The position numbers and the translations under genes are program-made. This document shows, one piece after another, positions 2,943-35,819 of a stretch of 64,000 bases of DNA; position 1 is the stretch's first letter; the number at the start of each line of letters is the position of its first letter. The stretch lies in assembly GCA_044237845.1 (NCBI GenBank), contig JBIIEL010000002.1:6550-70549 (forward strand), given 5' to 3'. The notes below the pieces were generated by a model. The model made no database searches. It was given only the letters and a program-made list of their open reading frames with translations, and was not told the DNA's origin. The DNA comes from Rickettsiales bacterium. GTDB lineage: Bacteria; Pseudomonadota; Alphaproteobacteria; Rickettsiales; UBA3002.

Positions 2943-3114
2943 GCTGCGTTGACCGTTATCCGTTGACCGTAGGGGTGAGGTTTGTATCGCGTGGTGTTAT
3001 GTGTTTTTAGCAATTCACTGCCATTTTATTGCTATTAAATTAGCCGAGCCATGCAATAAACGCAAGATGAAAATGGACGGCCTATACGCGTATTTCGTCC
3101 ATGCCGCCTCGGCA

Positions 3115-6121: not shown

Positions 6122-7003
6122 ATGAACCTGCGCGATTTACAGTATCTGGTAACCCTGCGTGAGACGCGCCATTTCGGACGGGCGGCGCGGGCGGCGCATG
6201 TCAGCCAGCCCACCTTGTCGATGCAGATCAAGAAACTCGAAGATACCCTCGGCATTCAGCTGCTGGAGCGCACCAACAAACAGGTGATGCTGACCGCGAT
6301 TGGCGAGGACATCACTCGCCGCGCCGAACGCGTGCTGGCCGAGGTGAGCGCGTTGAAAGAAGCCGCGCGCGCCGCGCGCGACCCAGCGGCGGGCACGCTG
6401 CGGCTGGGGCTGTTTCCCACGCTCGCGCCCTATCTGCTGCCGCGGATGATGCCCGCGCTCAAGCACGCATTCCCACGCCTCTCGCTGGTGCTGGTGGAGG
6501 AAAAAACCCCGGTGCTGATGGAGCAACTCGCTAGCGGCGGGCTTGATGCGGCGCTGCTCGCCATGCCTGTATCTGCCCGCGAATTGGACAGCCGCACGTT
6601 GTTCACCGAACCATTTCTGCTCGCCTGCGCGCGCGGACACCGGCTGGCCACGCGCAAACGCATCGCGCTCACCGAACTCACCCGCGAAACGATATTGCTG
6701 CTGGAGGACGGCCACTGCCTGCGCGATCAGGCGCTCGACGTGTGCCAACGCATCGGTGCGGGCGAAAGTGGCAGCTTCCGCGCTACCAGCCTCGAAACAC
6801 TGCGCCATATGGTGGCAACCAGCGATGCGGTGACGCTGATGCCCAAGCTGGCGACGGAAGAAAAGAGTGGGCAATTATGCTATCTTCCCTTTACCGGTAA
6901 TGCACCTTCGCGTATGATCGGTTTATACTGGCGTAATACGAGTGCAAAAACAGCACTATTCGATGCCATCGCGAAAAATATCACGCTGAATTACAAGAAA
7001 TAA
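6122..7003 (+). CDS. oxyR: Hydrogen-peroxide-inducible activator OxyR
   Basis: MNLRDLQYL HTH; LLEDGHCLRDQALDVC redox cysteines; RATSLETLR. Confidence 0.95.
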   Translation: MNLRDLQYLVTLRETRHFGRAARAAHVSQPTLSMQIKKLEDTLGIQLLERTNKQVMLTAIGEDITRRAERVLAEVSALKEAARAARDPAAGTLRLGLFPTLAPYLLPRMMPALKHAFPRLSLVLVEEKTPVLMEQLASGGLDAALLAMPVSARELDSRTLFTEPFLLACARGHRLATRKRIALTELTRETILLLEDGHCLRDQALDVCQRIGAGESGSFRATSLETLRHMVATSDAVTLMPKLATEEKSGQLCYLPFTGNAPSRMIGLYWRNTSAKTALFDAIAKNITLNYKK

Positions 7004-7048
7004 GACGAATTTATTTCATGCGCATAAAAAATGCGTAAAAGTAAACGC

Positions 7049-7312
7049 ATGAAGAATACGCATAAATCATCCGCACGAAATAGGCGCAAACCACTCAATG
7101 TTAGCGTATTGGAATCGCTGGTGGAGGAGGCCAAGGCATTCGACCTCAACCTCTCCCGCGTCGCGGAGGAGGCGATTGCTGCAGCCGTGCGTGCCGAGCA
7201 GGAGCGGCGCTATCTCGCGCAATCCGCCAAGGCGGTGGAAGCGCATAACCGCTGGGTGGCTGAGCGCGGTGTGCTGCTTACGCCCTATTGGATGACGCCG
7301 GAGGGGTCGTGA
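7049..7312 (+). CDS. ccdA: CcdA-family antitoxin
   Basis: RKPLNVSV...LVEEAKAFDLNLSR...AVEAHNRWV; stop overlaps the ccdB start. Confidence 0.85.
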   Translation: MKNTHKSSARNRRKPLNVSVLESLVEEAKAFDLNLSRVAEEAIAAAVRAEQERRYLAQSAKAVEAHNRWVAERGVLLTPYWMTPEGS

Positions 7313-22722: not shown

Positions 22723-22743
22723 ATGTGTTTCAAGTGATTATCA

Positions 22744-23331: not shown

Positions 23332-24692
23332 CCCAGCCCCTGCACTTCGCGGGGGAGACGGAGGGTAACCTCTAAGCCCTCAATCTTGCCATCAGCGGCG
23401 CGGCGGTTTTCGAGGGTGACCTCGCCGCCATGGCTTTGGGCGATGGCGCGGGCGATGGAAAGGCCAAGGCCGACACCGCCGGTTTCGCTGTTGCGTGATG
23501 GCTCCAGCCGCGTGAAGGGCTTGAACACGGTTTCAAATTCGGCTTCGGGAATGCCGGGCCCATGATCGGTGATTTTAATGCGGGCAAAGGTGAGGCTGGT
23601 CTCGAGCGCCACCTCGGCACGGCCACCGCCATAACGCAGCGCATTGTCGATGAGGTTGGTGAGCGCTCGGCGCATGGCCATCGGCCGCAGCATGAGGGTG
23701 AGTGGTGCGGCAGCGGCGAGGGTGACTTTTCGTTTACCGCGCGTGTAGCCGCTCACGATGTCGGTGACGAGCAGTGCGAGGTCAATCGGCTCCGGTAGCT
23801 CCCCCGCATCCCCACGCGCGAAATCGAGATACTCGTCGATCATCTGCTTCATCTCGTCGATCTCGGTGGCGAGCGCGCCACGCGTGGCATCATCCACCTT
23901 GCCCATTTCAAGTTCGAGTTTCATGCGGGTGAGTGGGGTGCGCAGGTCGTGGCTGATGCCGGCGAGCATCTCGGTGCGGCTCTGCACATGGCGGCGTGTG
24001 CGCTCGGCCATCATCAGAAAGGCGCGGCCTGCACGGCGTACTTCGCTCGCGCCACGGGGGCTGAATCCATCGACCTCCTGCCCCAGACCGAATTGCTCGG
24101 CGGCGCGGGCGAGCTGCACAATCGGCCGCACCTGATTGCGCAAAAACAGAATGGCGATGATGGTGAGCAGCAGCGCCGACCCCACCATCCAGGCGATGAA
24201 AATAAAGGTGGTGGAACTGGCGAGCCGCTTGCGCGGAAAGCTGAAATCGAGCACGCCGTCTACGGCGTTGACACGGATCGTAACCTCCTCCGGCCCACCG
24301 GAGAGGATCTCAACCGGGGAGGTGATGAGCGTGTTTAAATTGTCGTAGAAGGCAGGGAATTTGCGCCGCCCGCGCCCCTCTTTCAGCATCAGTGAGGGTT
24401 CGTCATGGTAGGTGACGGTGATGCTGAGGCGCTTGCCGCGGCCGATGGTTTGCTCCAGCGCCTCGCGCGTTCCAAATTCATGCTTGAGGCTGCGGTACTC
24501 GTTGGCAAGCATGGCGATATCGGCCGCCGTGGTGGAAGACATATTGCGTACCACACTGTCCCAGTGGCGGTCGTAAAAAATATGCGCGACCAGCAATTGC
24601 AACAGCACCACCGGTACCAGCAAAATCAGCAGCGCCCGTGCAAACAGGCTGCCTGGCGCAAAGCGTTTGAGGCGTTTAAAGCGGATCCGCAT
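23328..24692 (-). CDS. EnvZ-like sensor histidine kinase
   Basis: 2 TM, HAMP, ISHDLRTPLTR, NLIDNALRY, DHGPGIP, GVGLGL. Confidence 0.95.
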   Translation of the reverse strand: MRIRFKRLKRFAPGSLFARALLILLVPVVLLQLLVAHIFYDRHWDSVVRNMSSTTAADIAMLANEYRSLKHEFGTREALEQTIGRGKRLSITVTYHDEPSLMLKEGRGRRKFPAFYDNLNTLITSPVEILSGGPEEVTIRVNAVDGVLDFSFPRKRLASSTTFIFIAWMVGSALLLTIIAILFLRNQVRPIVQLARAAEQFGLGQEVDGFSPRGASEVRRAGRAFLMMAERTRRHVQSRTEMLAGISHDLRTPLTRMKLELEMGKVDDATRGALATEIDEMKQMIDEYLDFARGDAGELPEPIDLALLVTDIVSGYTRGKRKVTLAAAAPLTLMLRPMAMRRALTNLIDNALRYGGGRAEVALETSLTFARIKITDHGPGIPEAEFETVFKPFTRLEPSRNSETGGVGLGLSIARAIAQSHGGEVTLENRRAADGKIEGLEVTLRLPREVQGLG

Positions 24693-25374
24693 AGAGCACA
24701 TAGCCTGCGTGGCGCACCGTTTGCAGATAGATCGGCTTGCCGGGTTGAGGTTCAATTTTCTTGCGCAGGCGATTGATCTGCACATCCACCGAGCGCAGAT
24801 TCTGGACATCGCCAAGTTGCTCGGCGATGGATTCGCGGCTGACCGCCACCCCAGCTGTGCGCGCGAGAATTTTTAAGCAATCGCTCTCACCGCTCGTGAG
24901 GTAAATCACCCGCTCGCCCTGCGTGAGGCGGCCTTGGATGAGGTCGAACCGGTAGTCACCAAACGCGATTGCATCGCGGGGCGCGGGGGTAGGATTCTGA
25001 CGCGCGAGCATGTTCTGAAGCCGCAGTACCAGCTCGCGCGGGGCGAAGGGCTTGGCGAGGTAATCCGCCGCGCCGGATTCAAGCCCGGCGATGCGGTCAT
25101 CCGCCTCCGCGCGGGCGGTGAGCAGCAGAATCGGCGGCGCATCGCCCTTCTTGCTGAGGCGTGCGGCATAGGCGAGGCCGGTCTCGCCCGGCATCATCAC
25201 GTCGAGCACGAGTGCATCCGCACCGAAGGTCGCGAGCAGCGCATCGGCCTCCGAGGTGCCGTTCGCGGTCGAGACGAAAAACCCATGCTCGCTGAGATAT
25301 TGCTTGAGCAGTGCGCGCAGGCGCTCGTCGTCGTCGACGACCAGGATGTGGGGGGTGTTAGCGGTGAGGCTCAT
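24676..25374 (-). CDS. OmpR-family response regulator
   Basis: HILVVDDD, LDVMMPG, KPF, winged helix RSVDVQINRLRKKIE. Confidence 0.95.
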   Translation of the reverse strand: MSLTANTPHILVVDDDERLRALLKQYLSEHGFFVSTANGTSEADALLATFGADALVLDVMMPGETGLAYAARLSKKGDAPPILLLTARAEADDRIAGLESGAADYLAKPFAPRELVLRLQNMLARQNPTPAPRDAIAFGDYRFDLIQGRLTQGERVIYLTSGESDCLKILARTAGVAVSRESIAEQLGDVQNLRSVDVQINRLRKKIEPQPGKPIYLQTVRHAGYVLYADPL

Positions 25375-25400
25375 GCGGGTGAGTATAGTTGCACGTCCGT

Positions 25401-26162
25401 CTATTGCAACGTAATCACGCTCACTTGGCGGCCATAATCCGGCTCGCCGCGGAGCGTGGTGCGGCGGTAGCTGAAGAAATCGGCCTCGCGCACGCATGTA
25501 TCCATAGCAAGGTTACTGACCTTTGCCAAGCCCGCTGCCGCAAGGCGTGTGGTGATATAGGCGGGCAGGTCGAAATAATGATGCCTCGCACGCGTGCTGC
25601 GTGTGAAGAAATTTTCCTGTTCCAGCGTGCTGAAGCGATCAAAAAATTCCGCGCCGACCTCATAGCTCGCTTGCGCGATGGTGGGCCCGAGCACGGCGTG
25701 GATGTTTTCCGTGCGTGCACCTAAACTTTGCATCGAGCGCAGTGTCGCTTCGAGGACGCCGCCGACGGCACCTTTCCACCCCGCATGCGCGGCGCCGATG
25801 ACGCGGGCGACCGGGTCGGCAAACAGCACAGGCCCGCAATCGGCCGTAAGGATGCCGAGTGCAATGCCAGGCGTGGCAGTGACCATGGCGTCTGCCTGTG
25901 GTTTGTTCGCGGGGTCAACGGGCGCGGTGAGGGTCACCACCTCCGCCGAATGGATTTGATAGAGCGTTGAAAGTTGTGATGCGGGAAGCGCAAAATGCGC
26001 AGCGACGCGGCGGCGGTTTTCGGCGATATGCGCGGCATCATCGCGGCTGCCGACGCCGCAATTGAGCCCCGCATAGATGCCCTCGCTCACGCCGCCCTCG
26101 CGGCCGAAGAAGCCGTGGCCAATGCCGGGCAGGGTGAGGGTGGGGTGGGTGAAGGGGGTCAT
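25401..26162 (-). CDS. pgeF: Peptidoglycan editing factor PgeF (YfiH)
   Basis: QIHSA, TADCGPVL, AHAGWKG, FFSYRR. Confidence 0.92.
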   Translation of the reverse strand: MTPFTHPTLTLPGIGHGFFGREGGVSEGIYAGLNCGVGSRDDAAHIAENRRRVAAHFALPASQLSTLYQIHSAEVVTLTAPVDPANKPQADAMVTATPGIALGILTADCGPVLFADPVARVIGAAHAGWKGAVGGVLEATLRSMQSLGARTENIHAVLGPTIAQASYEVGAEFFDRFSTLEQENFFTRSTRARHHYFDLPAYITTRLAAAGLAKVSNLAMDTCVREADFFSYRRTTLRGEPDYGRQVSVITLQ

Positions 26163-26165
26163 GCG

Positions 26166-27236
26166 TTACTCTCCAAACCCGGGCACATCGCGTGCGTCGG
26201 CGGTAATGGCGATGACTTTGAACAGCTCACCCATCGCCTGCGGGGAGATGAGGCGCTCGAGGCCGTTTATGAGATGTGGTTTTTGTTCCGGCGTGGCCTG
26301 ACGCAGCAGCATTTCAAGTCGCAGTTCCGCCCCCATGCGGCGCAAAAATTCACCTTGCGTGATGAGCCCATGCACGCGCGTGCCCGCATCCCCCGCGATG
26401 CGCATGAGGGTCTGAAAATCGACATGCGCGGTGATGTCGGCATCGCCGGGCGCTTCGAGCACGGGGTGAAATACGTGGGATTTGACTGCCTGCAGCGTGT
26501 CGCTATGCGCCTCGCCGAGATAGCCGTAATCGATGATGAGCGAGCCGCCGCCATGCTGGGCAATCTGCTGCGAAATCTGCCGCATGATGCTGCGCGAGGC
26601 GGGGGATTGCTCCATCACCGTGCCGGGCGCAATGACGCTGCCGCTCTTGGCCAGCGCCAGCCCCGGCTCGCCGAGAGTGAAGATGAATTTCTGCGTTTCT
26701 TCGTCCCACCCCACGCGGCGCTCGCGCACGCCTTCTGCGGTCATCACCTGCTGCTTGATCGGCAGCGCATCGAAAAATTCGTTGGCAATGAGGAGTGTTT
26801 TGTTCTGCGGCAGCTCGTCGATGCTGTCGAGCCATTCGATGCGCGGATGCTCGTGGCGCAGGCGCATATATTGCGCGTTGGCGAGCACCGGGCTGGTCTC
26901 GACCATGTGGATGGTGACGGCGTCGTGAAACCCGGCGGTCGATTTGGTGGCGCGCAGCACATCTGCCATCAGCGTGCCGCGTCCGGGTCCGAGCTCCACA
27001 AGGCTCACCGCGCCGCCGCCCGTTTGTTTCCATACTGTGGCGCACCAGACGCCGATCATCTCGCCGAAGATTTGCGAGATTTCCGGTGCGGTGATGAAGT
27101 CGCCCCGCGTGCCGAACGGGTCGTGCTTGCGGTAATAACCATGCTCCGGATGGCCGAGCGCGAGCGCCATATAGTCGGCGATGCTGATGCTCCCCTCGGC
27201 GAGGATGCGGTCACGGGTGAGCGTATAATCGTCCAG
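26166..27236 (-). CDS. SAM-dependent methyltransferase, MidA/NDUFAF7 family (start uncertain)
   Basis: GDFITAPEISQIFGE, VELGPGRGTL, ANEFFDALP, ADITAHVDF. Confidence 0.9.
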   Translation of the reverse strand: MDDYTLTRDRILAEGSISIADYMALALGHPEHGYYRKHDPFGTRGDFITAPEISQIFGEMIGVWCATVWKQTGGGAVSLVELGPGRGTLMADVLRATKSTAGFHDAVTIHMVETSPVLANAQYMRLRHEHPRIEWLDSIDELPQNKTLLIANEFFDALPIKQQVMTAEGVRERRVGWDEETQKFIFTLGEPGLALAKSGSVIAPGTVMEQSPASRSIMRQISQQIAQHGGGSLIIDYGYLGEAHSDTLQAVKSHVFHPVLEAPGDADITAHVDFQTLMRIAGDAGTRVHGLITQGEFLRRMGAELRLEMLLRQATPEQKPHLINGLERLISPQAMGELFKVIAITADARDVPGFGE

Positions 27237-27318
27237 TGCTAGCCGCTAGTGCTAGTCGCTAGTCATACACAACGGAGGACGATGTTCTGCCTTCAGGCCG
27301 CTTTCTCCGATCTGTTAA

Positions 27319-27716
27319 CATAAAAAACGCTCCTGAACATCCTTATATAAAACAAGGAACGTTCAGAAGCGTTAATTTACAAACATCTTCAAAGATGTTT
27401 GTCACGGCAACAACTCCTGATTATTATATCAGCAGTTAATGCTAGCGCCACGATAGCGGGGGCTAGAAGAGTAAGACAGAACAGCCATATAGGTGTATTT
27501 TCTGAACTTACGCCGTCTGTAAATAATAAAACTAATAAGTTGTTCATACCTACGAGTTTATGCCTTGCCTTAGGAGCGTACAGCAAAGCGATTTATAATC
27601 TGCCCCTGATCAAGTTGCCTTTGTGCTTTCATGAAATGAAAAACAGAAAGACAGACAAGAACAGAACCATCTTACCCGAATTTTGGCATAAGAAATGTGA
27701 CAGTTTTGTGAAGATT
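27319..27716 (-). repeat. ~396-bp duplicated cassette, copy 1 (box copy 4 at 27696-27715, leader, small ORF, terminator)
   Basis: Reverse complement aligns end to end with 32509-32904. Confidence 0.95.
27389..27547 (-). CDS. Small hydrophobic membrane peptide (52 aa)
   Basis: MNNLLVLLF...IWLFCLTLLAPAIVALALTADIIIRSCCRDKHL; frame conserved in the second copy. Confidence 0.6.
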   Translation of the reverse strand: MNNLLVLLFTDGVSSENTPIWLFCLTLLAPAIVALALTADIIIRSCCRDKHL

Positions 27717-27721
27717 GATGG

Positions 27722-28501
27722 TTAAGCGCTTTTTGCCGTTATCACTGCCCACAGCCCCACCGCGATCATCGGCAGGCAGAGAAGCTGCCCCATGGTGAGG
27801 CCGAAGGTGAGGAAGCCGAGCTGTGCATCGGGCTCGCGGAAGAACTCCACCGTGAAGCGCGACAGCGCATAGCCGATGAGAAACAACCCGCCGAGCATAC
27901 CGCGCCGCGCCAGCGCATTCGTGCGGGTGGCGAGGGTGAAGAGCAGCGCGAAGAGGAGGATGCCTTCGAGCGCGGCTTCGTAAAGCTGGCTGGGGTGCCT
28001 TGGCAGCGCGCCGCCGTTTGGAAAAATAATGCCCCACGACGCATCCGTCACGCGGCCATACAGCTCGCCGTTGATGAAGTTGGCGCAGCGCCCAAGGAAC
28101 AGGCCGATGGGTGCCGCGACGGCGAAACGATCCATCAGCGCCAACCAGGAGATGTGGTAGCGACGCGCGAAGAGGTAGAACGCTGCGAGCACGCCGATAA
28201 GCCCGCCATGGAATGACATGCCGCCCTGCCACACCGCAAAAATATCTGTCGGATGCGAAAGGAAGTGGGGAAAATTATAAAACAGTACATAGCCCACGCG
28301 CCCGCCGAGGATGATACCGAGCACAGCGTAGAGAATCACATCGTCGCGCGCTTTGGCGGTGAGGAGGGGGGCGCGCCGATCATCCAGCCACGTCACCATT
28401 TTGTACGCGATGAGTATGCCGACCACATAGGCCAGCGCATACCAGCGGATGACCAGTGGGCCGATTTCAAGCGCGATGGGGGAGATGTCGGGGAAATTCA
28501 T
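27722..28501 (-). CDS. lgt: Prolipoprotein diacylglyceryl transferase
   Basis: IRWYALAY, GGMSFHGG, NFINGELYGR, HPSQLYEA, EFFREPD. Confidence 0.98.
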   Translation of the reverse strand: MNFPDISPIALEIGPLVIRWYALAYVVGILIAYKMVTWLDDRRAPLLTAKARDDVILYAVLGIILGGRVGYVLFYNFPHFLSHPTDIFAVWQGGMSFHGGLIGVLAAFYLFARRYHISWLALMDRFAVAAPIGLFLGRCANFINGELYGRVTDASWGIIFPNGGALPRHPSQLYEAALEGILLFALLFTLATRTNALARRGMLGGLFLIGYALSRFTVEFFREPDAQLGFLTFGLTMGQLLCLPMIAVGLWAVITAKSA

Positions 28502-28521
28502 GGGTTGCTCCCGGCTCGGTC

Positions 28522-28584
28522 TGCTGAACTCGCCATGGAGCGCCGCTTCGCGGGCTCATGGCTGACTCGCGCTCCTGCGCTCGC
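28522..28584. repeat. Family B palindromic element (related copies near 5163-5196, 6063-6104, 13885-13936, 39177-39191)
   Basis: Shared ccatggagc...cttcgcgggctcatggct...ctcgc core. Confidence 0.7.
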
Positions 28585-28594
28585 AGTTTCGTGC

Positions 28595-29584
28595 CTAAAA
28601 ATACTGATCGCCCTTCATCAGGTAGTTCTGGATGTAGTCTTTCACCCCGTCTTCGAGGGAATAGAACGCGTCCTTATAGCCAGCCGCGCGCAGGCGATCC
28701 ATTTTCGCTTCGGTGAGGTACTGGTATTTGCTGCGCAGTTCCTCCGGCATGTCGATGAAGGTGATGGCGGGCGCTTTGCCAACAGCGGTGAAGGTCGCGG
28801 TTGCCAAATCCTTGAAGCTGCGCGCCTTGCCGGTGCCGAGGTTGAACAGGCCGTTCACACCCGGATTGGCCAGCAACCAGGCGACGACTTTGACGCAGTC
28901 TTTCACATAGAGGAAATCGCGCAGTTGTTCGCCGTCCTTATAGTCGTCGCGGTAGCTGTGGAACAGCTTGACCGGGCGGCCATGGGTGGCGTGCGGGAAA
29001 ATCTGGTTCACGACCGACCGCTGGTCCTCCTTATGGTATTCGTTCGCGCCATAGACGTTGAAGAATTTGAGCCCTGCCCATTGCGGCGGCGTGGCCTCTT
29101 TCGCTCTCGCTAGCGAGACGAACTGGTCGAACAGATGTTTGCTCCAGCCATAGGCGTTGAGCGGTTTGAGCTTGATGAGCGCGTCGATGCTGTTGTCGTC
29201 ATCGAACCCGGCATCACCATTGCCGTAGGTCGCGGCGGAGGAAGCGTAGATGAAGCGTTTTTTGTTTTTCGTCGCCCAGTTCCACAGCAGCTTGGAGAGG
29301 GTGAAGTTGGTGGCCAAAATCAGGTCGACATCCGTCTCTGTCGTCGACGATACCGCGCCCATATGCACGATGGCTTCGAGCTCGTTTTTGTTGAGCTCCA
29401 GCCAGTCGAAAATCTGCGCCGGGGCAATGACCTCGAAAATGCGGTGCTTGGCGAGGTTGCGCCATTTGTCGGTGCTGCCGAATTCATCCGCCACAATCAC
29501 GCGGTAGTCGGTATGATCCGCCAATGTGCCCGCGATGTTGCTGCCGATAAATCCGCCGCCGCCGGTGACCAGAATCCGTTTCAT
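28595..29584 (-). CDS. hldD: ADP-L-glycero-D-manno-heptose 6-epimerase
   Basis: TGGGGFIGSN, YASSAATYG, PLNAYGWSK, FFNVYG, YQYLTEA. Confidence 0.93.
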   Translation of the reverse strand: MKRILVTGGGGFIGSNIAGTLADHTDYRVIVADEFGSTDKWRNLAKHRIFEVIAPAQIFDWLELNKNELEAIVHMGAVSSTTETDVDLILATNFTLSKLLWNWATKNKKRFIYASSAATYGNGDAGFDDDNSIDALIKLKPLNAYGWSKHLFDQFVSLARAKEATPPQWAGLKFFNVYGANEYHKEDQRSVVNQIFPHATHGRPVKLFHSYRDDYKDGEQLRDFLYVKDCVKVVAWLLANPGVNGLFNLGTGKARSFKDLATATFTAVGKAPAITFIDMPEELRSKYQYLTEAKMDRLRAAGYKDAFYSLEDGVKDYIQNYLMKGDQYF

Positions 29585-29632
29585 AGATGCCTCAATGCAA
29601 GTTGCTGGGGCAAGTGTAGTGAGTCCGGGGGG

Positions 29633-29680
29633 CAGAGTCCAGAGTTCAGAGCCGAGAGTTCAGGGTTCAGGGTTCAGAGT
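29633..29680 (+). repeat. Degenerate CAGRGTT heptamer tract
   Basis: cagagtccagagttcagagccgagagttcagggttcagggttcagagt. Confidence 0.8.
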
Positions 29681-29756
29681 GCGCCGCGCTGTTGCCGAGA
29701 AAGCATGGCTGCAGATTCCCTATTCACAACGCAGCGTTCGCTGCTATAGTCCGGCC

Positions 29757-29993
29757 ATGCTCAAAGACAAACATCTGGTCGATGACCTTGCCAAAATGTT
29801 CTCCGGCGCGGCCGGGGCAGCGATGGATATGCGCCGCGAACTCGAAGCCCTCGTCGCCGATAAAATCGAGCGCGTGTTCGCCCGCGGGCATTATGTGACG
29901 CGCGAGGAATTCGAGGTCGTGCGCGACATGGCCGCCAAGGCGCGGGCTGAGAATGAGCGCCTCAGCGCTGAGTTAGCGAAGTTGAGGAAGTAG
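29757..29993 (+). CDS. Accessory factor UbiK family protein
   Basis: DDLAKM...VTREEFEVVRDMAAKARAENERL. Confidence 0.85.
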   Translation: MLKDKHLVDDLAKMFSGAAGAAMDMRRELEALVADKIERVFARGHYVTREEFEVVRDMAAKARAENERLSAELAKLRK

Positions 29994-30080
29994 GTTTAAC
30001 CGGATTTCCAGAACATGTCACCCCGTGGTAAACACAGGGTGACAGCCCTATTTTGGTTGGGTACGAGCGCAGAACCCCCA

Positions 30081-30100
30081 ATCTTCACAAAACTGTCACA
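30081..30100 (+). promoter_or_regulatory. Direct-repeat box copy 5
   Basis: ATCTTCACAAAACTGTCACA; TGC-TATTTT with the hexamer 21 nt downstream. Confidence 0.75.
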
Positions 30101-30256
30101 TTCAGGGGCGGCGTAATATGCTATTTTACCCTTAGTCTTTCGTTATTTGTGCCCTTTTGATTTTCAAAAACACGCATAACGCTAAGGACTATTCTGAAGC
30201 AGCCGCTTTGGGATTACAGTCCGCAAGGACTCAACTATGTAAATTTTAACTATGAT

Positions 30257-30484
30257 ATGAATATACAACCAATAAAGGAGAATTGGGGCAGCTTTTTGCT
30301 TACCTTCGTACTCCTTGTTTTGGGAGCAGGTTTCTTTTTATTTTCCAAACCCTGTTTGGCAAACTCAATCTTCAGCCTAGGGCTGGTGATTGGAGGTATA
30401 ATCTACGCCATAAAAATGGCGCAGATTTTATACAAAAAAGAAGCAGCTTCTGAAACGAACCGCTCGGAGACTAGCAATGACTAG
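30257..30484 (+). CDS. Orphan small 2-TM membrane protein
   Basis: Low-GC 75-aa ORF with two hydrophobic segments. Confidence 0.6.
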   Translation: MNIQPIKENWGSFLLTFVLLVLGAGFFLFSKPCLANSIFSLGLVIGGIIYAIKMAQILYKKEAASETNRSETSND

Positions 30485-30724
30485 TCTCCAAACATCTGCT
30501 CTGCATGAAGGCTTTATGCCCGATTGTATCAGATGTTTTTTTTACCCCCACTTCGCCGCCCACCACCATCCCTAGCGGCGCGATGCACAGACCCCACTAT
30601 ATTTTGATGGATTTTTATTTCCGCCTGTGTTTCACTCATTTTGTGCCGCACCTGCGAGAGCACGTGAAGAGCATGGACAGACTACCCGGCAAGTAACCCT
30701 GGGTCATTTTAATGAGGAGCACTC

Positions 30725-31231
30725 ATGTCCACAGTTCATTCCGTCGACGTTGCCGTTACTGCCCAAAACCCCCTCGATATCGCCGAACAACTGGTCGATG
30801 GCCGCGACTGGCTGTTTGACCGGCCAGACGAGGCCGAGCTGGTCGCCGAAGTCACCGGCAACTGGTGCAATTACCGTATCTGGTTTGCCTGGCAGCCCGA
30901 CCTCGGCGCGATGATGTTCACCTGCGCGTTCGACAGCAAAATCCCCGCCGCCTCGCGCAGCAAAATGTACCCCATGCTCGCCGCGGTGAACGAGAAAATG
31001 TGGCTCGGCCATTTCGACATGGGCACCGAAGACGGGGTGGTCATGTTCCGCCACGCGATGCTGCTTTCCGGCAACGGCGCCGCCTCGCCCGAGCAGCTCG
31101 AAGACCTGATGGACATCGCCATCGCCGAGTGCAACCGCTTCTACCCCGCGTTCCAATCGGTGCTGTGGGGCGGCAACTCGGTCGAAGAGGCGCTCAACAT
31201 CGCGCTGCTGGATACGGTGGGCGAGGCGTAG
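30725..31231 (+). CDS. YbjN-domain protein
   Basis: NPLDIAEQ...G.WC.Y...NEKMWLGHFD...FYPAFQ; GAGGAG RBS. Confidence 0.88.
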   Translation: MSTVHSVDVAVTAQNPLDIAEQLVDGRDWLFDRPDEAELVAEVTGNWCNYRIWFAWQPDLGAMMFTCAFDSKIPAASRSKMYPMLAAVNEKMWLGHFDMGTEDGVVMFRHAMLLSGNGAASPEQLEDLMDIAIAECNRFYPAFQSVLWGGNSVEEALNIALLDTVGEA

Positions 31232-31246
31232 GGGCTTCGCCGCGTT

Positions 31247-32428
31247 TTAAAGCGTCACCACCACCGCATCGGCGGCTTCGTTCGCTTTGCGGCGGGCGTT
31301 GGTGATGTCCTCGCCCAGCGCGAGGGCGACGCCCATGCGGCGATGGCCTGTGACCTCCGGTTTGCCGAACAAACGTAGTTGTGTATCCGGCGCGGCGAGG
31401 GCGGCGGTGAGGTTGGAAAATTGCACCTGCTTGGAATGGCCATCGACGAGGATGACGCGCGAGGCCGCTGCGCCATGCTGACGAATCGCCGGAATCGGCA
31501 GGCCGAGAATCGCCCGCGCATGCAGCGCAAACTCCGACAGATCCTGCGAGATGAGCGTGACCAGCCCCGTATCATGCGGCCGTGGCGAGACCTCGCTGAA
31601 GATGACGTCGTCGCCCTTCACGAAAAGCTCCACGCCGAATAATCCGTAGCCGCCGAGTGCGTCGGTGACTTTTTTCGCGATCTCTTCTGCAGCCTCGCGC
31701 GCAGCGCGCGACATAGGCTGAGGCTGCCAGGATTCCTGATAATCCCCGCCTTCCTGCCGGTGACCGATGGGCGCGCAGAAGCTTGTGCCGCCGACATGAC
31801 GCACGGTGAGGAGCGTGATTTCGTAGTCGAAATCGATGAAGCCCTCGACGATGACGTGCGTGCCGCCGGTGCGCGATTCTTCGCAAGCAATCTTCCAGGA
31901 ATCTGCGATTCCATGCGAATTTTTTATCACACTCTGTCCCTTGCCCGAGGAGCTCATGATGGGTTTCACCACGCAGGGAATGCCGATGGCGGCGACGGCG
32001 GCGCGGAACTCGGCTTCGTTGGTGGCGAAGCGGTAGGGCGAGGTGGGCAGGCCCAGCTCCTCGGCGGCGAGGCGGCGGATACCCTCGCGGTTCATGGTGA
32101 GCTGGGTGGCGCGTGCCGTCGGTACTACGCTAAATCCTTCGTCCTCCAAGGCACGAAGTGCCCCGGTGGCGATGGCTTCGATTTCGGGGACGATGAGATG
32201 GGGCTTTTCGGCGAGGATGATCTCCCGGAGTTTTTCGCCGTCGAGCATGGAGAGCACGTAGCTGCGGTGCGCGACCTGCATGGCCGGGGCGTTTTCGTAG
32301 CGGTCGAGCGCGATGATCTCCACCCCGTAGCCCGCGAGCGCGATGGCGACTTCCTTGCCCAGCTCGCCGGAGCCAAGCAGCATGACTTTTTTTGCAGTGG
32401 GGGAGAGCGGTGTGCCGATGCGGGTCAT
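31247..32428 (-). CDS. purT: Formate-dependent phosphoribosylglycinamide formyltransferase
   Basis: [29 protein letters not shown]. Confidence 0.97.
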
Positions 32429-32678
32429 GGGAGGCCTTGAGGTTAGTGATTATGGCTAAGGGGTTAGCAGGGCGGTAGCTTTTTGTCATCCATCCCGCGA
32501 GGGTTATAAATCTTCATAAAACTGTCACATTTCTTATGCTCGGATTCGGGTAAGATTAGTTCTGTTCATGCTGTATTTCTGTTTTTCATTCCTATGAAAA
32601 CGCAAAGACAACTTGATCAGGGGCAGATTATAAATCGCTTTGCTGTACGCTCCTAAGGCAAGGCATAAACTAAGGGTT

Positions 32679-32834
32679 GTGAACAACTTATTAGTTCTTT
32701 TATTTACAGACGGCGTAAGTTCAGAAAATGCACCTATATGGCTGTTCTGTCTTACTCTTCTAGCCCCCGCTATCGTGGCGCTAGTATTAACTGCTGATAT
32801 AATAATCAGGAGTTGCCGTGACAAACATCTTTAA
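32679..32834 (+). CDS. Small hydrophobic membrane peptide (51 aa, GTG start)
   Basis: Paralog of 27389-27547. Confidence 0.55.
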   Translation: MNNLLVLLFTDGVSSENAPIWLFCLTLLAPAIVALVLTADIIIRSCRDKHL

Positions 32835-32848
32835 GATGTTTGTAAATT

Positions 32849-32901
32849 AACGCTTCTGAATATTCCTTAGTTTTATACAAGGATGTTCAGGAGCGTTTTT
32901 T
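32849..32901 (+). terminator. Long-stem intrinsic terminator of the cassette
   Basis: aacgcttctgaatattcctt...aaggatgttcaggagcgtt followed by a T run. Confidence 0.75.
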
Positions 32902-32912
32902 ATGCGCACCAC

Positions 32913-35117
32913 TCACATAAAATAATACGGGTTCACATCGATTTTGATGCGTACGCCGGTGAATTTCTGGCCGTCGAGCCAGGCACGCAGGGTGCGCTGC
33001 AAATGAATGCCCGGCTTGGCTTTGACGAGGATGCGGTAGCGGAACTGGCCGCGCAGTTTCGACAGGGGCGCGGGCGCGGGGCCGAGCACGGTGAGGCGCG
33101 GATCGACCGGTGCGGATTGGGCGAGGATTTGCCCGGTGCGGCGGACTTTTGCTTCATCCACCCCATCCAGCAAAATCGCGGCGAGGCTTCCAAACGGCGG
33201 CCAGCCTCCGGCGCGGCGCTCCTTGGCTTCGAGCGCCATCAGTCGCGCGCGATCATGCGCGGCGAGGGATTGCATGACCGGGTGCTGCGGCTCATAGGTT
33301 TGCACCAGCACGCGGCCAGCCAGTTCGCCGCGCCCGGCGCGTCCACCGAGCTGGTGGAGGAGTTGATAGCTGCGCTCGCCCGCGCGCAGGTCGGCACCGC
33401 TGAGGCCGACATCCGCATCAACCACGACGACCAATGTGAGGCGCGGGAAATGGTGCCCCTTGGCCACCATCTGCGTGCCGACGATGATATCGACCTCGCC
33501 GCGCTCAATCGCCTCCCATGTCCCGGCGGCGATGGCTTCGTCGGAGGAGAGGATGGCGAGGGAGGGAGGTTTTTCGCCCTCTTGCGCATGGGCGAACATC
33601 GCCCGCGCTTCTTCGGCGATGCGCTCGACGCCGGGGCCGCAGGGGGCGAGCATCGCCGCGTCGGCATTGCAGCTGGGGCATTTTTTCGGCATCGGTTCGC
33701 GGTGGTCGCAGTGATGGCAATGGAGGCGGCTGTTGCTGTGCACGGTGAGCCACGCGCTGCAATCCGCGCATTGGAAACGATGGCCGCAATGGCGGCAGAG
33801 CAGCAGCGGCGCATAGCCGCGGCGGTTCAAAAACAGCAGCACCTGCTCGCCGCGCGCGAGGGTTTCGAGCATTTCTTTTTTGACGAGCGGTGAGAGGAAA
33901 TCGCCCCGCTCCGGCGGGTGAATGCGCATGTCGATGAGTTCGACGGCGGGCAGCCCCGCAGCGCCAAAACGCTCCGGCAAAGTGAGGGCGCGGTACTTGC
34001 CCTCGCGCACGTTCTCGAGCGTTTCAAGCGACGGCGTGGCGGAGGCGAGGATGATGGGAATGCCCTCGAAGCGGGCGCGGGCGACGGCCATGTCGCGCGC
34101 GTGGTAGAGCACGCCGTCTTCCTGCTTGTAGCTGGGGTCGTGCTCCTCATCGACGATGATGAGCGAGAGGTTGGCGAACGGTAAAAATAGCGCCGAGCGT
34201 GCGCCGACCACGACCTGCGCCTCGCCGCGCGCGATGGCCTGCCAGGCGCGGGATTTTTGCACCGGCGTCATCCGCGAATGCCAGACGATGGGTGCCGCGC
34301 CGAAGGTTTTTTCAAACCGCGCGAGCCATTGGTGGGTCAGTGCAATTTCGGGGAGGAGGATGAGGAGTTGTTTATTGGAAGGGGGCGTTCCGCCGCCGTT
34401 GGCTCGCAAACTCGCCCTTTCCGCTTCGCTCCAAGACGCTTCGCTGACCCCCTCGCTTCGCTTCGCTCGCGGCTCGCCATGGGAGGCTACGCACGGCTCA
34501 CTACTGGCACTGTTCTGTAACATCGCCGCGATGGCGTGGAAATAGACCTCCGTTTTGCCGGAGCCGGTGACGCCGTCGAGCAGGATGGGTTTTTCCGGCG
34601 CGGTGAGCAATGCCTCGGCCACCTGCTGCTGCGCGGGGGTGAGGGTGGGGAGGGTGATATTCCACGGCGCGGGCGCATAGGGTTTCTTTGGTGCCTTCGC
34701 CGCGTGGGCGAGGCCGCACAGCGACAGCACCGCACCCTTCGGGGCGAGCGTAAACTCTGCTACCCAGTCGAGCCACTGGCGATAGGAAAGCGGCAGCGGC
34801 GGCAAGTTCTCGATGACGCGGGTGATGGGTTTGAGTTGGAATTTTTTCCCTGAAGGGGGCATCGCCCCCTTCGCTTCGCTGACCCCCTCCGCACGCGGCT
34901 CGCGCCGTAAAGCGCTACGCAGGCCTGAAGCAGCGCTACTATTGCCTTCCGGCGCAGCCTGCCACACCACCCCCACGAGCTTTCGCCCGGCCAGCGTCGC
35001 CTCGACCACGGCGCCTTCTGGCGTGCCGATGGGTACGAGATAGTCGAACGGCGCCGGCACCAGCGCGGGCATCAGCACCGGGGCGGAAGAGGAGGGTTGC
35101 ACTGATGGCGCGTCCAT
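32913..35117 (-). CDS. priA: Primosomal protein N' (helicase) with two repeat-derived insertions
   Basis: [21 protein letters not shown], Zn-finger CxxC cluster, [11 protein letters not shown]. Confidence 0.97.
34378..34493 (+). repeat. Family A element (extended) in frame in priA
   Basis: Encodes [39 protein letters not shown]. Confidence 0.9.
34850..34921 (+). repeat. Family A element in frame in priA
   Basis: Encodes [24 protein letters not shown]. Confidence 0.9.
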
Positions 35118-35168
35118 TCTATGGGTTTCCTAGCATTCGTATGGCATTCATATTTAGGAGCAAGAGAC

Positions 35169-35819
35169 ATGAAGTTCTTCGTTGATACCGCAGACATCGC
35201 CGAAATCAAAGACCTCGCTGCAACCGGGTTGCTCGATGGCGTGACCACCAACCCCAGTCTCATTAAAAAAGCCGGGCGCGACTTCAAGGAAGTCATCGCC
35301 GAAATCTGCGCGGTGACGGATGGCCCGGTGAGCGCCGAAGTCGTGGCCATGGAGTTCGACGGCATGGTGAAGCAAGGCGAAGACCTCGCCAAAATCGCGA
35401 AAAACGTGACGATTAAAGTGCCGCTGACCATCGACGGACTCAAGGCCTGCCGCCATTTTCGCGATCAGGGGATTATGGTGAACGTGACGCTGTGCTTCTC
35501 GGCGGCGCAGGCGCTGCTCGCCGCCAAAGCGGGCGCGAGCTTCATCTCGCCGTTCGTCGGGCGGCTCGATGATGTCGGCAGCGATGGGTTGACGCTGATC
35601 CACGACATCGTGACGATTTACAATAATTATGATTTCGAGACCGAGGTGCTGGTCGCCTCCGTGCGCAACCCGATCCATATTGTCGAATCCGCGAAAATGG
35701 GCGCCCATGTGGTGACGGCTCCGGCCAGCGTGCTCAAAGCGCTGGTGAACCACCCGCTGACAGACCGTGGCCTCGAGATTTTCATGAAGGATTGGGCCGC
35801 GACCGGGCAGAAGCTTTAG
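35169..35819 (+). CDS. fsa: Transaldolase / fructose-6-phosphate aldolase family
   Basis: [26 protein letters not shown]. Confidence 0.93.

Follow-up and report, generated by a model that had tools for sequence, protein, structure and literature searches.

A box-to-terminator unit duplicated in inverted orientation around a housekeeping-gene block in an uncultured Rickettsiales bacterium

In an uncultured member of the Rickettsiales, a unit of about 400 nt, bounded by a promoter box at one end and an intrinsic terminator at the other, is present twice, in inverted orientation. The unit lies in a 64,000-nt stretch of contig JBIIEL010000002.1 (assembly GCA_044237845.1), referred to here as the window, in which copy A occupies positions 27319-27719 on the minus strand and copy B positions 32506-32904 on the plus strand. 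The best overall explanation, which we hold to be fairly probable, is a self-contained, box-driven unit with a predicted RNA of about 340 nt that includes an open reading frame (ORF); the unit is specific to this lineage and was copied once in inverted orientation. This small lineage-specific gene is a clean example of a regulon member copied with exactly its own promoter and terminator, and such copying to a further site between genes illustrates how a regulon made of orphan genes can expand. Of wider interest is the box itself, a near-invariant, PhoB-like element of 21 nt found before dozens of unknown genes throughout a whole uncultured family; one regulator and one motif provide a testable handle on the genes that these bacteria switch on together.

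The duplicated DNA corresponds to exactly one promoter-to-terminator unit with sharp ends. Global alignment of the two copies gives 372 identical columns of 406 (22 mismatches, 12 gap columns), with longest identical blocks of 63 and 54 nt, and an inverted-repeat search recovers five collinear pieces that jointly cover 27319-27719 and 32506-32904. When copy A is compared with the whole 2.0-Mb genome by blastn, copy B is matched at 92% over query positions 2-402 (E 3e-159), and the other 27 matches listed are at most 31 nt long and include the box only; there is no third copy. The local alignment begins 3 nt 5' of AATCTTCA in the box and stops at TTTTTTATG, 3 nt past the terminator T-run. The first-pass annotation had drawn the ends of homology at the box and just past the T-run. 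Outside the aligned ends the flanks are unrelated (the lgt 3' end versus the purT upstream region, and the methyltransferase upstream region versus the priA stop codon). The sole indel within the ORF is the in-frame, 3-nt difference described earlier and amounts to one Cys codon; all other indels are of 1-2 nt and lie outside the ORF. The duplication is real, yet it is a fairly ordinary lineage-specific gene duplication.

Each component named in the first-pass annotation (the TAAGAT hexamer, a leader of about 120 nt, an ORF of 51-52 codons, a hairpin over the stop codon, and a terminator) is present, the leader measuring closer to 115 nt. The copy A box (27696-27716, minus strand; AATCTTCACAAAACTGTCACA) is an exact 21-nt match that starts 5 nt past the lgt stop codon and contains the direct repeats TTCACA and GTCACA, 11 nt apart. 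The -10 hexamer TAAGAT follows 21 nt after the box (27669-27674), and transcription is predicted to start about 7 nt past it, near 27662. On the basis of this predicted start, the leader spans about 115 nt (27548-27662); it holds a 20-codon upstream ORF (27632-27570) and an 8-bp hairpin with CUCCU in its loop (27589-27562), and the segment 27617-27555 is 100% identical to copy B. The ORF (27389-27547, minus strand; MNNLLVLLFTDGVSSENTPIWLFCLTLLAPAIVALALTADIIIRSCCRDKHL) consists of 52 codons from an ATG followed by TGA, with one predicted membrane helix and a basic C-terminus. An 11-bp perfect hairpin covers the stop codon (27379-27402), and beyond it the intrinsic terminator (27322-27373) has a 19-bp stem with one bulge, a 9-nt loop, and T6. 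Similarity between the copies runs out on this side at 27319.

Copy B repeats this layout on the plus strand, where similarity begins at 32506. Its box (32509-32529) differs from that of copy A at position 9, with T in place of C, and TAAGAT again lies 21 nt after the box (32551-32556). The leader of about 116 nt (32563-32678) includes an upstream ORF at 32594-32656 and leads to an ORF of 51 codons that starts with GTG and ends with TAA (32679-32834). Relative to copy A, this ORF lacks one Cys codon, has two conservative replacements (T to A and A to V), and has a Leu codon changed at two bases that remains synonymous. The stop-codon hairpin (32821-32843) has a loop 1 nt shorter than that of copy A and retains the stop, and the terminator (32849-32901) ends 8 nt before the stop codon of the convergent priA gene (32913-32915). 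In both copies a G+C-containing stem of 19 bp is followed by T6, as in intrinsic terminators; a simple terminator scan did not list either one.

The 4.8-kb block between the copies (27722-32428) contains, by Pfam, lgt (minus), an NAD-dependent epimerase gene (minus), a BMFP/UbiK-like gene (plus), a YbjN-like gene (plus), and purT (minus). A third box (30080-30100) lies within the block between the UbiK-like and YbjN-like genes, and behind it is an ORF of 75 aa with two helices (30257-30484, plus strand). Inversion of the block is possible in principle, as inverted 400-nt arms with 92% identity and identical runs of 63 and 54 nt are long enough for homologous recombination. That the copies serve mainly as substrates for a reversible lgt-purT switch is nevertheless highly improbable. 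Copies that often exchanged sequence would not be expected to differ by 8%, and the ancestral gene order and orientation (methyltransferase-lgt-epimerase-UbiK-YbjN-(purT)-priA) are the same in G007 and G006, two other species of the genus, which have no repeats. Moreover, both units transcribe outward from the block, as judged by their orientation, and inversion would therefore change nothing for them. No strand-changing joint occurs in four DNA runs, which is a weak test because the short unitigs cannot span the 400-nt repeat; the four unit/flank junctions match the window in run X1 and partly in X2 and X3. One joint, from 27720 to 30074 (side 28), lies at box copies and was discounted as an artefact of repeated sequence.

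The box is a conserved promoter element and not a mobile repeat. The genome has 60 copies with at most three mismatches, 21 of them exact, and the box pattern occurs 55 times compared to 0 times for a reversed-pattern control. By a simple hexamer test applied to 80 sites, a TAnnnT hexamer follows at 21 nt in 38 and at 20 nt in 15 (together 53 of 80); of the other boxes, seven have a TAnnnT at a different distance and 20 lack one. For about half of the boxes, a start codon with a Shine-Dalgarno sequence follows 67-95 nt after the first nucleotide of the box. The box is found in all 36 family genomes, with 2-66 per genome and control hits of zero except in one genome; genomes from 24 other families in the order have 0-5 boxes each. 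Conservation is confined to the 21 nt and the spacer to the -10 varies freely, which is the signature of a protein-binding site rather than of a transposed element. The box promoters lack a -35 hexamer and have the -10 at a fixed distance. The genes behind boxes are mostly low in GC, and 18 of 20 have no Pfam family.

The box would lie at about -54 to -34, with its two direct repeats one helical turn apart, and a response regulator of the OmpR/PhoB type is the most likely protein to bind this putative site and recruit RNA polymerase to TAAGAT; six OmpR-type regulators are encoded in the genome. The box core CTTCACAAAACTGTCACA closely resembles PhoB sites of E. coli, such as the pstS and metH sites listed in PMC10294691, and like them forms an 18-nt tandem direct repeat. 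With its two repeats 11 nt apart, the box shares the tandem-direct-repeat design of the pho boxes at OmpR/PhoB-family activator promoters of E. coli; in contrast to those boxes, its sites number about 60-100 in a genome of 2 Mb, mostly with low-GC orphans downstream. A Pho regulon is unsupported, since no box above 12 bits occurs within several kb of the single PBP_like_2 gene (C29:14132, pstS-like) or the single PhoU gene (C33:8352). A literature search with the box string returned unrelated, primer-type matches only.

In the PmrA regulons of Legionella and Coxiella, bacteria with type IV secretion systems, a response regulator controls effector genes. By analogy only, the box regulon resembles them in placing a tandem-repeat box, at a set distance upstream of the -10, before many lineage-specific genes of unknown function. 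The genome encodes three VirB4-type ATPases, and the uncultured alphaproteobacterial family has several type IV secretion systems. A more far-reaching reading appears unlikely to us: that the box marks a response-regulator-driven regulon of about 60-100 rapidly replaced, low-GC orphans, possibly host- or prey-interaction factors, in which the unit is a new toxin-like or dual-function RNA/peptide module spreading into housekeeping-gene gaps by precise promoter-to-terminator copying.

The transcript of the unit would be about 340 nt long and highly structured, closed by the stop-codon hairpin and the strong intrinsic terminator, and its product could be either the 51-52-codon peptide or the RNA itself. 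Both ORFs (52 aa from ATG, 51 aa from GTG) end in RSC(C)RDKHL, and their maximum 19-residue hydropathy (2.35-2.47) is the highest among small box-driven ORFs; if translated, the product may be a small single-pass membrane peptide. We put the odds of translation at about even. In favor of coding, the sole ORF indel is of 3 nt, the two-base change in the Leu codon is synonymous, and a 1-nt indel leaves the stop intact. In both copies the weak Shine-Dalgarno sequence lies too near the start codon. Scored against other box-driven genes, the ORFs have codon-usage log-odds of -8.8 and -5.2, below 99.7% of in-frame 52-codon pieces and above 97% of out-of-frame pieces, and a sense ORF of at least 52 codons arises in 18% of dinucleotide shuffles of the transcript.

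Such statistically unremarkable ORFs, with atypical codon usage and a weak Shine-Dalgarno sequence, would suit a non-coding or dual-function RNA that acts by base pairing, for example through the exposed CUCCU loop, and in which the ORF is incidental or secondary. This reading is possible, if somewhat doubtful. The leader is the best conserved part of the unit (63 nt identical, where the first 100 nt reach about 85% identity), and the ORF is less well conserved than the leader core, a pattern pointing to a function at the RNA level. The 8-bp hairpin, with its CUCCU in a 12-nt loop, is predicted in both copies, and the overall fold is strong (z-scores of -7.7 and -6.0). The seven substitutions that fall in predicted stems, two of them in the terminator stem (columns 303/327 and 304/326), all leave a standard pair in place; this support is partly circular because the consensus fold was picked to fit both of only two sequences. 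However, the indels preserve the reading frame, windows of 40 nt across the ORF region show 95-100% identity, and bacterial small RNAs are usually shorter than about 340 nt. Neither an Rfam search to E 10 (best match E 0.58, with a score far under the gathering threshold) nor a leader covariance model run on 39 family genomes (best E 0.0097, in one genome) identified a family or relative.

Two other assignments were rejected. The antisense ORF of 108 aa in copy A (27399-27725, plus strand) and 96 aa in copy B (32534-32824, minus strand) begins at a TTG within the stop-codon hairpin, has no promoter, and would be translated across the box; a frameshift separates the C-termini of its two versions, and almost every difference between them is non-synonymous. 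A role as an attenuator or leader for downstream genes was ruled out, as copy B has no downstream gene on the same strand and priA is convergent.

The peptide has also been likened to type I toxins, in which a membrane-damaging peptide is encoded by an mRNA silenced by a folded leader together with an antisense or trans-acting small RNA. Like the type I loci hok/sok, fst, and tisB, the unit is compact and stands alone, is duplicated in the chromosome, and combines a small hydrophobic peptide with a long, structured leader. The product would have 51-52 aa, one hydrophobic helix, and a charged C-terminus, within the <60-aa range of type I membrane-helix peptides only if the ORF is translated, which is itself doubtful. 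The leader is long in comparison with the 12-40 nt typical of this regulon, the weak Shine-Dalgarno sequence sits in a stem, and the whole fits the general definition of such modules as given in PMC2887945 and PMC8309996. Unlike hok/sok, fst, and tisB, the unit has no sequence relationship to a toxin family (no hits in Pfam at E 0.01 or better or in NCBIfam, and no relative in protein searches), no conserved antisense promoter, and no detected partner RNA. Crude promoter scans find a sole sigma-70-like antisense promoter in copy A (27399-27427, plus strand), the spacer of which is cut to 14 nt in copy B by the 3-nt indel, and the terminator lacks a T-run on the opposite strand. There is no exact complementarity of at least 17 nt elsewhere in the genome, and the three complementary matches of 14-16 nt are close to the number estimated to arise by chance. 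These scans and searches yielded no RNA antitoxin, whether antisense or trans-encoded, that would have its own promoter, and we consider a type I module unlikely.

The first-pass annotation took the duplication as direct evidence that box cassettes move. The copying of the unit as a module, with exact ends, stands; the generalization is overstated because copies A and B are the only pair among 82 box regions with similarity extending past the promoter of about 45-65 nt. A mobile promoter-to-terminator cassette, with the box edge and terminator hairpin serving as recombination or transposition ends between intergenic sites, would account for duplicated DNA that ends within 3 nt of the functional unit. 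TTAAC is found on both flanks of copy A, and differing low-GC inserts of about 0.5-1.4 kb occupy the lgt|methyltransferase junction in G013, G023, G020, and G003, the G023 insert being driven by a box variant; the small ORF behind the third box is likewise at a gene junction. However, the G013 insert has no box, conservation of the box ends at 21 nt with a free spacer, copy B has no flank repeat, and the chance probability of the TTAAC at copy A is estimated at a few percent. Further, the two ends of the unit are unrelated and form no terminal inverted repeats, only two copies exist, and no recombinase domain is found in the ORFs scanned around and between them. The unit thus lacks the terminal inverted repeats, per-copy target-site duplications, high copy number, and recombinase of transposable elements, MITEs, and integron cassettes, and a mobile cassette is quite unlikely.

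A single copying event within one lineage remains the preferred reading. The unit would have arisen or been acquired in the lineage of this species as a member of the family-wide box regulon, mostly of fast-turnover, low-GC orphan genes, and later been copied once, promoter to terminator and inverted, so that the copies occupy narrow gaps between genes, one at lgt|methyltransferase and the other at purT|priA. The closest species, G013, has flanking genes that are 89-96% identical, and neither copy is found there; both copies are therefore specific to this lineage. The lgt and methyltransferase genes of G001 overlap (ATGA), leaving no unit at that junction, and the purT-priA spacer of G007 is 259 nt long, GC-rich, and without the unit. 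No convincing relatives of the unit were found by blastn in 40 relatives or against plasmids and phages, or by exact 31-mers in metagenome and viral contigs. The peptide has no convincing tblastn match in 39 family genomes, no homologue in a word search over 5.8 billion proteins or a phmmer search of 1.84 billion representative proteins, and a best score of 0.86 in the ESM Atlas, under the useful range. Both sets of junctions recur as exact unitigs in two further lake-water runs from other studies. The runs that hold DNA of the window are labelled as lake water and wastewater metagenomes.

The inverted duplication is confirmed, and the interpretation first given to it is supported in part. The duplicated unit belongs to a family-wide regulon controlled by the box and is specific to this lineage; roles as toxin, mobile cassette, or switch for inversion are less likely readings. 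Copy A occupies 27319-27719 on the reverse strand and copy B 32506-32904 on the forward strand, and a repeat search covered both intervals with five collinear inverted pieces, exactly where the first-pass annotation had placed an inverted duplication. A blastn search with copy A against the whole genome that holds the window (2,002,022 bases in 59 contigs) likewise returned only copy A itself and copy B as full units (92% identity, query positions 2-402, E = 3e-159); the other 27 matches listed are at most 31 nt long, and all lie on query positions 1-31, which are the box. Global alignment of the two copies gives 406 columns (372 identical, 22 mismatched, and 12 with gaps); the two longest stretches without a difference measure 63 nt (27617-27555) and 54 nt. 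The local alignment starts 3 nt upstream of AATCTTCA and ends at TTTTTTATG, beyond which the flanks of the two copies are unrelated genes. The G+C content of the unit is about 38%, versus 55.9% for the genome.

Both copies carry all of the parts originally described. On the transcribed strand, each has a 21-nt box, a 21-nt spacer, the -10 hexamer TAAGAT, a leader that runs for about 115 nt from the predicted start, an open reading frame (ORF) of 52 codons from ATG or 51 codons from GTG, a perfect 11-bp hairpin that spans the stop codon, and a terminator with a 19-bp stem and a T6 tail. The copies diverge unevenly: about 85% of positions agree over the first 100 nt, 100% in a core of the leader, about 80% immediately ahead of the start codon, 95-100% within the ORF, and about 90% across the terminator.

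By its sequence context, the box is a promoter element rather than a mobile repeat. This genome has 60 occurrences at up to three mismatches (21 are exact), with a count of 55 versus 0 for a reversed-pattern control, and a weight matrix finds 97 sites above 20 bits. Conservation does not reach past the box into the spacer, which varies freely. Among 80 sites, a -10 of the form G.TAnnnT lies 21 nt downstream in 38 and 20 nt downstream in 15; seven have another spacing, and 20 have no -10 by the same simple test. Downstream of about half of the boxes, at 67-95 nt from where the box begins, lies a start codon that has a Shine-Dalgarno sequence. A degenerate box pattern is present in all 36 family genomes (2-66 per genome, with 66 in this genome and 60 in G013, the closest relative) versus only 0-5 per genome in members of 24 further families within the order; the control for this pattern was 0 in all genomes but one. 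There are about 60-100 box promoters per genome.

The box consists of two direct repeats 11 nt apart, and its core closely resembles Escherichia coli PhoB sites given in PMC10294691. Yet no box lies near the single pstS-like gene or the single phoU gene of the genome, and we therefore call the box a putative site of an OmpR/PhoB-type activator. Six regulators of this type are encoded in the genome, one of them inside the window (24676-25497). The genes behind boxes have a low G+C fraction (mostly 0.34-0.53), and 18 of the 20 tested have no Pfam family, whereas all nine adjoining housekeeping genes have one. The box regulon is a more interesting lead than the duplicated unit itself. Boxes in the window lie at 3114, 7672, 27716 (reverse strand), 30080, and 32509, with weaker ones near 22743, 45322 (reverse strand), and 52846 (reverse strand). 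The box at 30080 precedes an ORF of 75 aa, which has two hydrophobic segments, and then a 15-bp palindrome (30080-30500), so that three small hydrophobic box-driven ORFs lie within 5.6 kb; the 75-aa ORF has no relative in 39 family genomes, where the best match (E = 0.003) holds stop codons. Elsewhere (contig C53, 44134-44189), two exact boxes stand back to back, divergent and 14 nt apart, and look like a bidirectional promoter.

The unit is probably a small box-driven gene whose product is uncertain, and the odds that its ORF is translated into a peptide are roughly even. The frame is kept between the copies, as had been claimed: the only indel inside the ORF is 3 nt long and every 1-2-nt indel lies outside (chance about 0.05 by our estimate), one leucine codon that differs at two bases remains synonymous, and the stop codon is retained despite a 1-nt indel. 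The sequence also has a clear pattern of a membrane helix plus a basic tail. Against a peptide, the codon-usage log-odds (-8.8 and -5.2) are lower than those of 99.7% of in-frame pieces taken from other genes behind boxes, though higher than those of 97% of out-of-frame pieces; the Shine-Dalgarno match is weak, a sense ORF of at least 52 codons arises in 18% of shuffles, and the peptide has no relative in the family genomes, protein collections, or the ESM Atlas. Moreover, the stretch best conserved between the copies lies not in the ORF but in the leader, where there are an upstream ORF of 20 codons and a hairpin whose loop contains CUCCU. Shuffled sequences fold much less well than the predicted RNAs (z = -7.7 and -6.0), and in the consensus fold all seven substitutions that fall in stems preserve standard pairing, a comparison of two sequences only that is partly circular. 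That the unit is mainly a regulatory RNA is a tentative alternative to the small gene. Less likely still is a type I toxin module, to which the layout had been compared: the shape of the peptide fits, but the ORF matches no known family in Pfam or NCBIfam, the spacing of the one candidate antisense promoter (27399-27427) is broken in copy B, and no complementarity of at least 17 nt to an antitoxin partner was found elsewhere in the genome. These likelihoods belong to overlapping readings.

The duplication had also been taken as direct evidence that box cassettes move, for which its support is weak. The duplicated stretch begins and ends strikingly close (within 3 nt) to the functional ends of the unit; however, of the 82 box regions in this genome (excluding overlapping windows of neighboring boxes and the contig-end overlap of C27 and C45), only copies A and B are similar beyond the 45-65-nt promoter. 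At the protein level, box-driven ORFs form only two weak paralogue groups. No terminal inverted repeats were found at the ends of the unit, and TTAAC flanks copy A on both sides, but not copy B (chance a few percent by our estimate). Most simply read, one member of the regulon was duplicated once, and the new copy would have persisted because it fitted between genes and brought its own promoter and terminator.

Neither copy is present in G013, the closest species among the relatives compared, whose flanking genes are 89-96% identical. Upstream of purT, G013 matches the window to about 10 nt short of the copy B box and then diverges, and its UbiK-like gene lies 25 nt from the priA stop codon. 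Its gap between lgt and the methyltransferase gene holds a different AT-rich ORF on the opposite strand (locus L146, about 7000-7100), with a TATGAT hexamer and TTAA-N7-TTAA, which we take to resemble a CtrA site, upstream instead of a box. In the same species (L146, G013 contig C9, 16000-29000, compared with window 25400-35200), pgeF has the YbjN-purT pair upstream of it, and the breakpoints fall at box-cassette positions of this genome.

In G001 (L149), the lgt and methyltransferase genes overlap at ATGA and are translationally coupled, which is probably the ancestral state, and in G007 the purT-priA spacer is 259 nt, GC-rich, and without the unit. Spacing between lgt and the methyltransferase gene is 60-250 nt in most species. 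It reaches about 0.6-1.45 kb in five, with low-GC inserts of about 0.5-1.4 kb (this genome, window 27171-27318 and 27722; G013, L146; G023, L147; G003, L240; G020, L241). Since the contents of these inserts are unrelated, the junction is a recurrent insertion spot; in the G023 insert, a variant of the box precedes an ORF of 156 aa. In the adjoining Methyltransf_28 gene (27170-27230, reverse strand), the conserved N-terminus (…RDRILAEGSISIADY…) is in frame, with no ATG, GTG, or TTG before it, and the first canonical start, at 27170, lies downstream of conserved N-terminal residues; either the start is non-canonical, or the 5' end was remodeled when the unit was inserted.

The two copies had been proposed to invert the 4.8-kb block between them. 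Gene order and orientation (methyltransferase, lgt, epimerase, UbiK-like, YbjN-like, purT where present, and priA) are the same in the window, G007, and G006. It follows that the block has kept the orientation typical of the genus and that G013 is the genome that was rearranged. Unitigs from the probable source run match all four junctions between unit and flank. Two additional lake-water runs, which belong to different studies, gave exact unitigs that span the outer end of copy A (27252-27438), the inner end of copy B (32378-32530), and portions of both units. Among the unitigs, which cannot span a 400-nt repeat, no joint with a change of strand was listed. Within the block, purT (31247-32428) has its best PurT matches in the species collection in Pseudomonas (71-73% identity), and among the genus matches listed its DNA is confined to G013 and G007; the gene may thus have been acquired horizontally.

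The 2-Mb genome gave no match to TssC/VipB (type VI) and contains three genes for VirB4-type (type IV secretion) ATPases (C31:1207-1800, C26:41254-41862, and C2:4331-4918). Together with the orphan-gene regulon, the VirB4 genes suggest a host- or prey-associated lifestyle.
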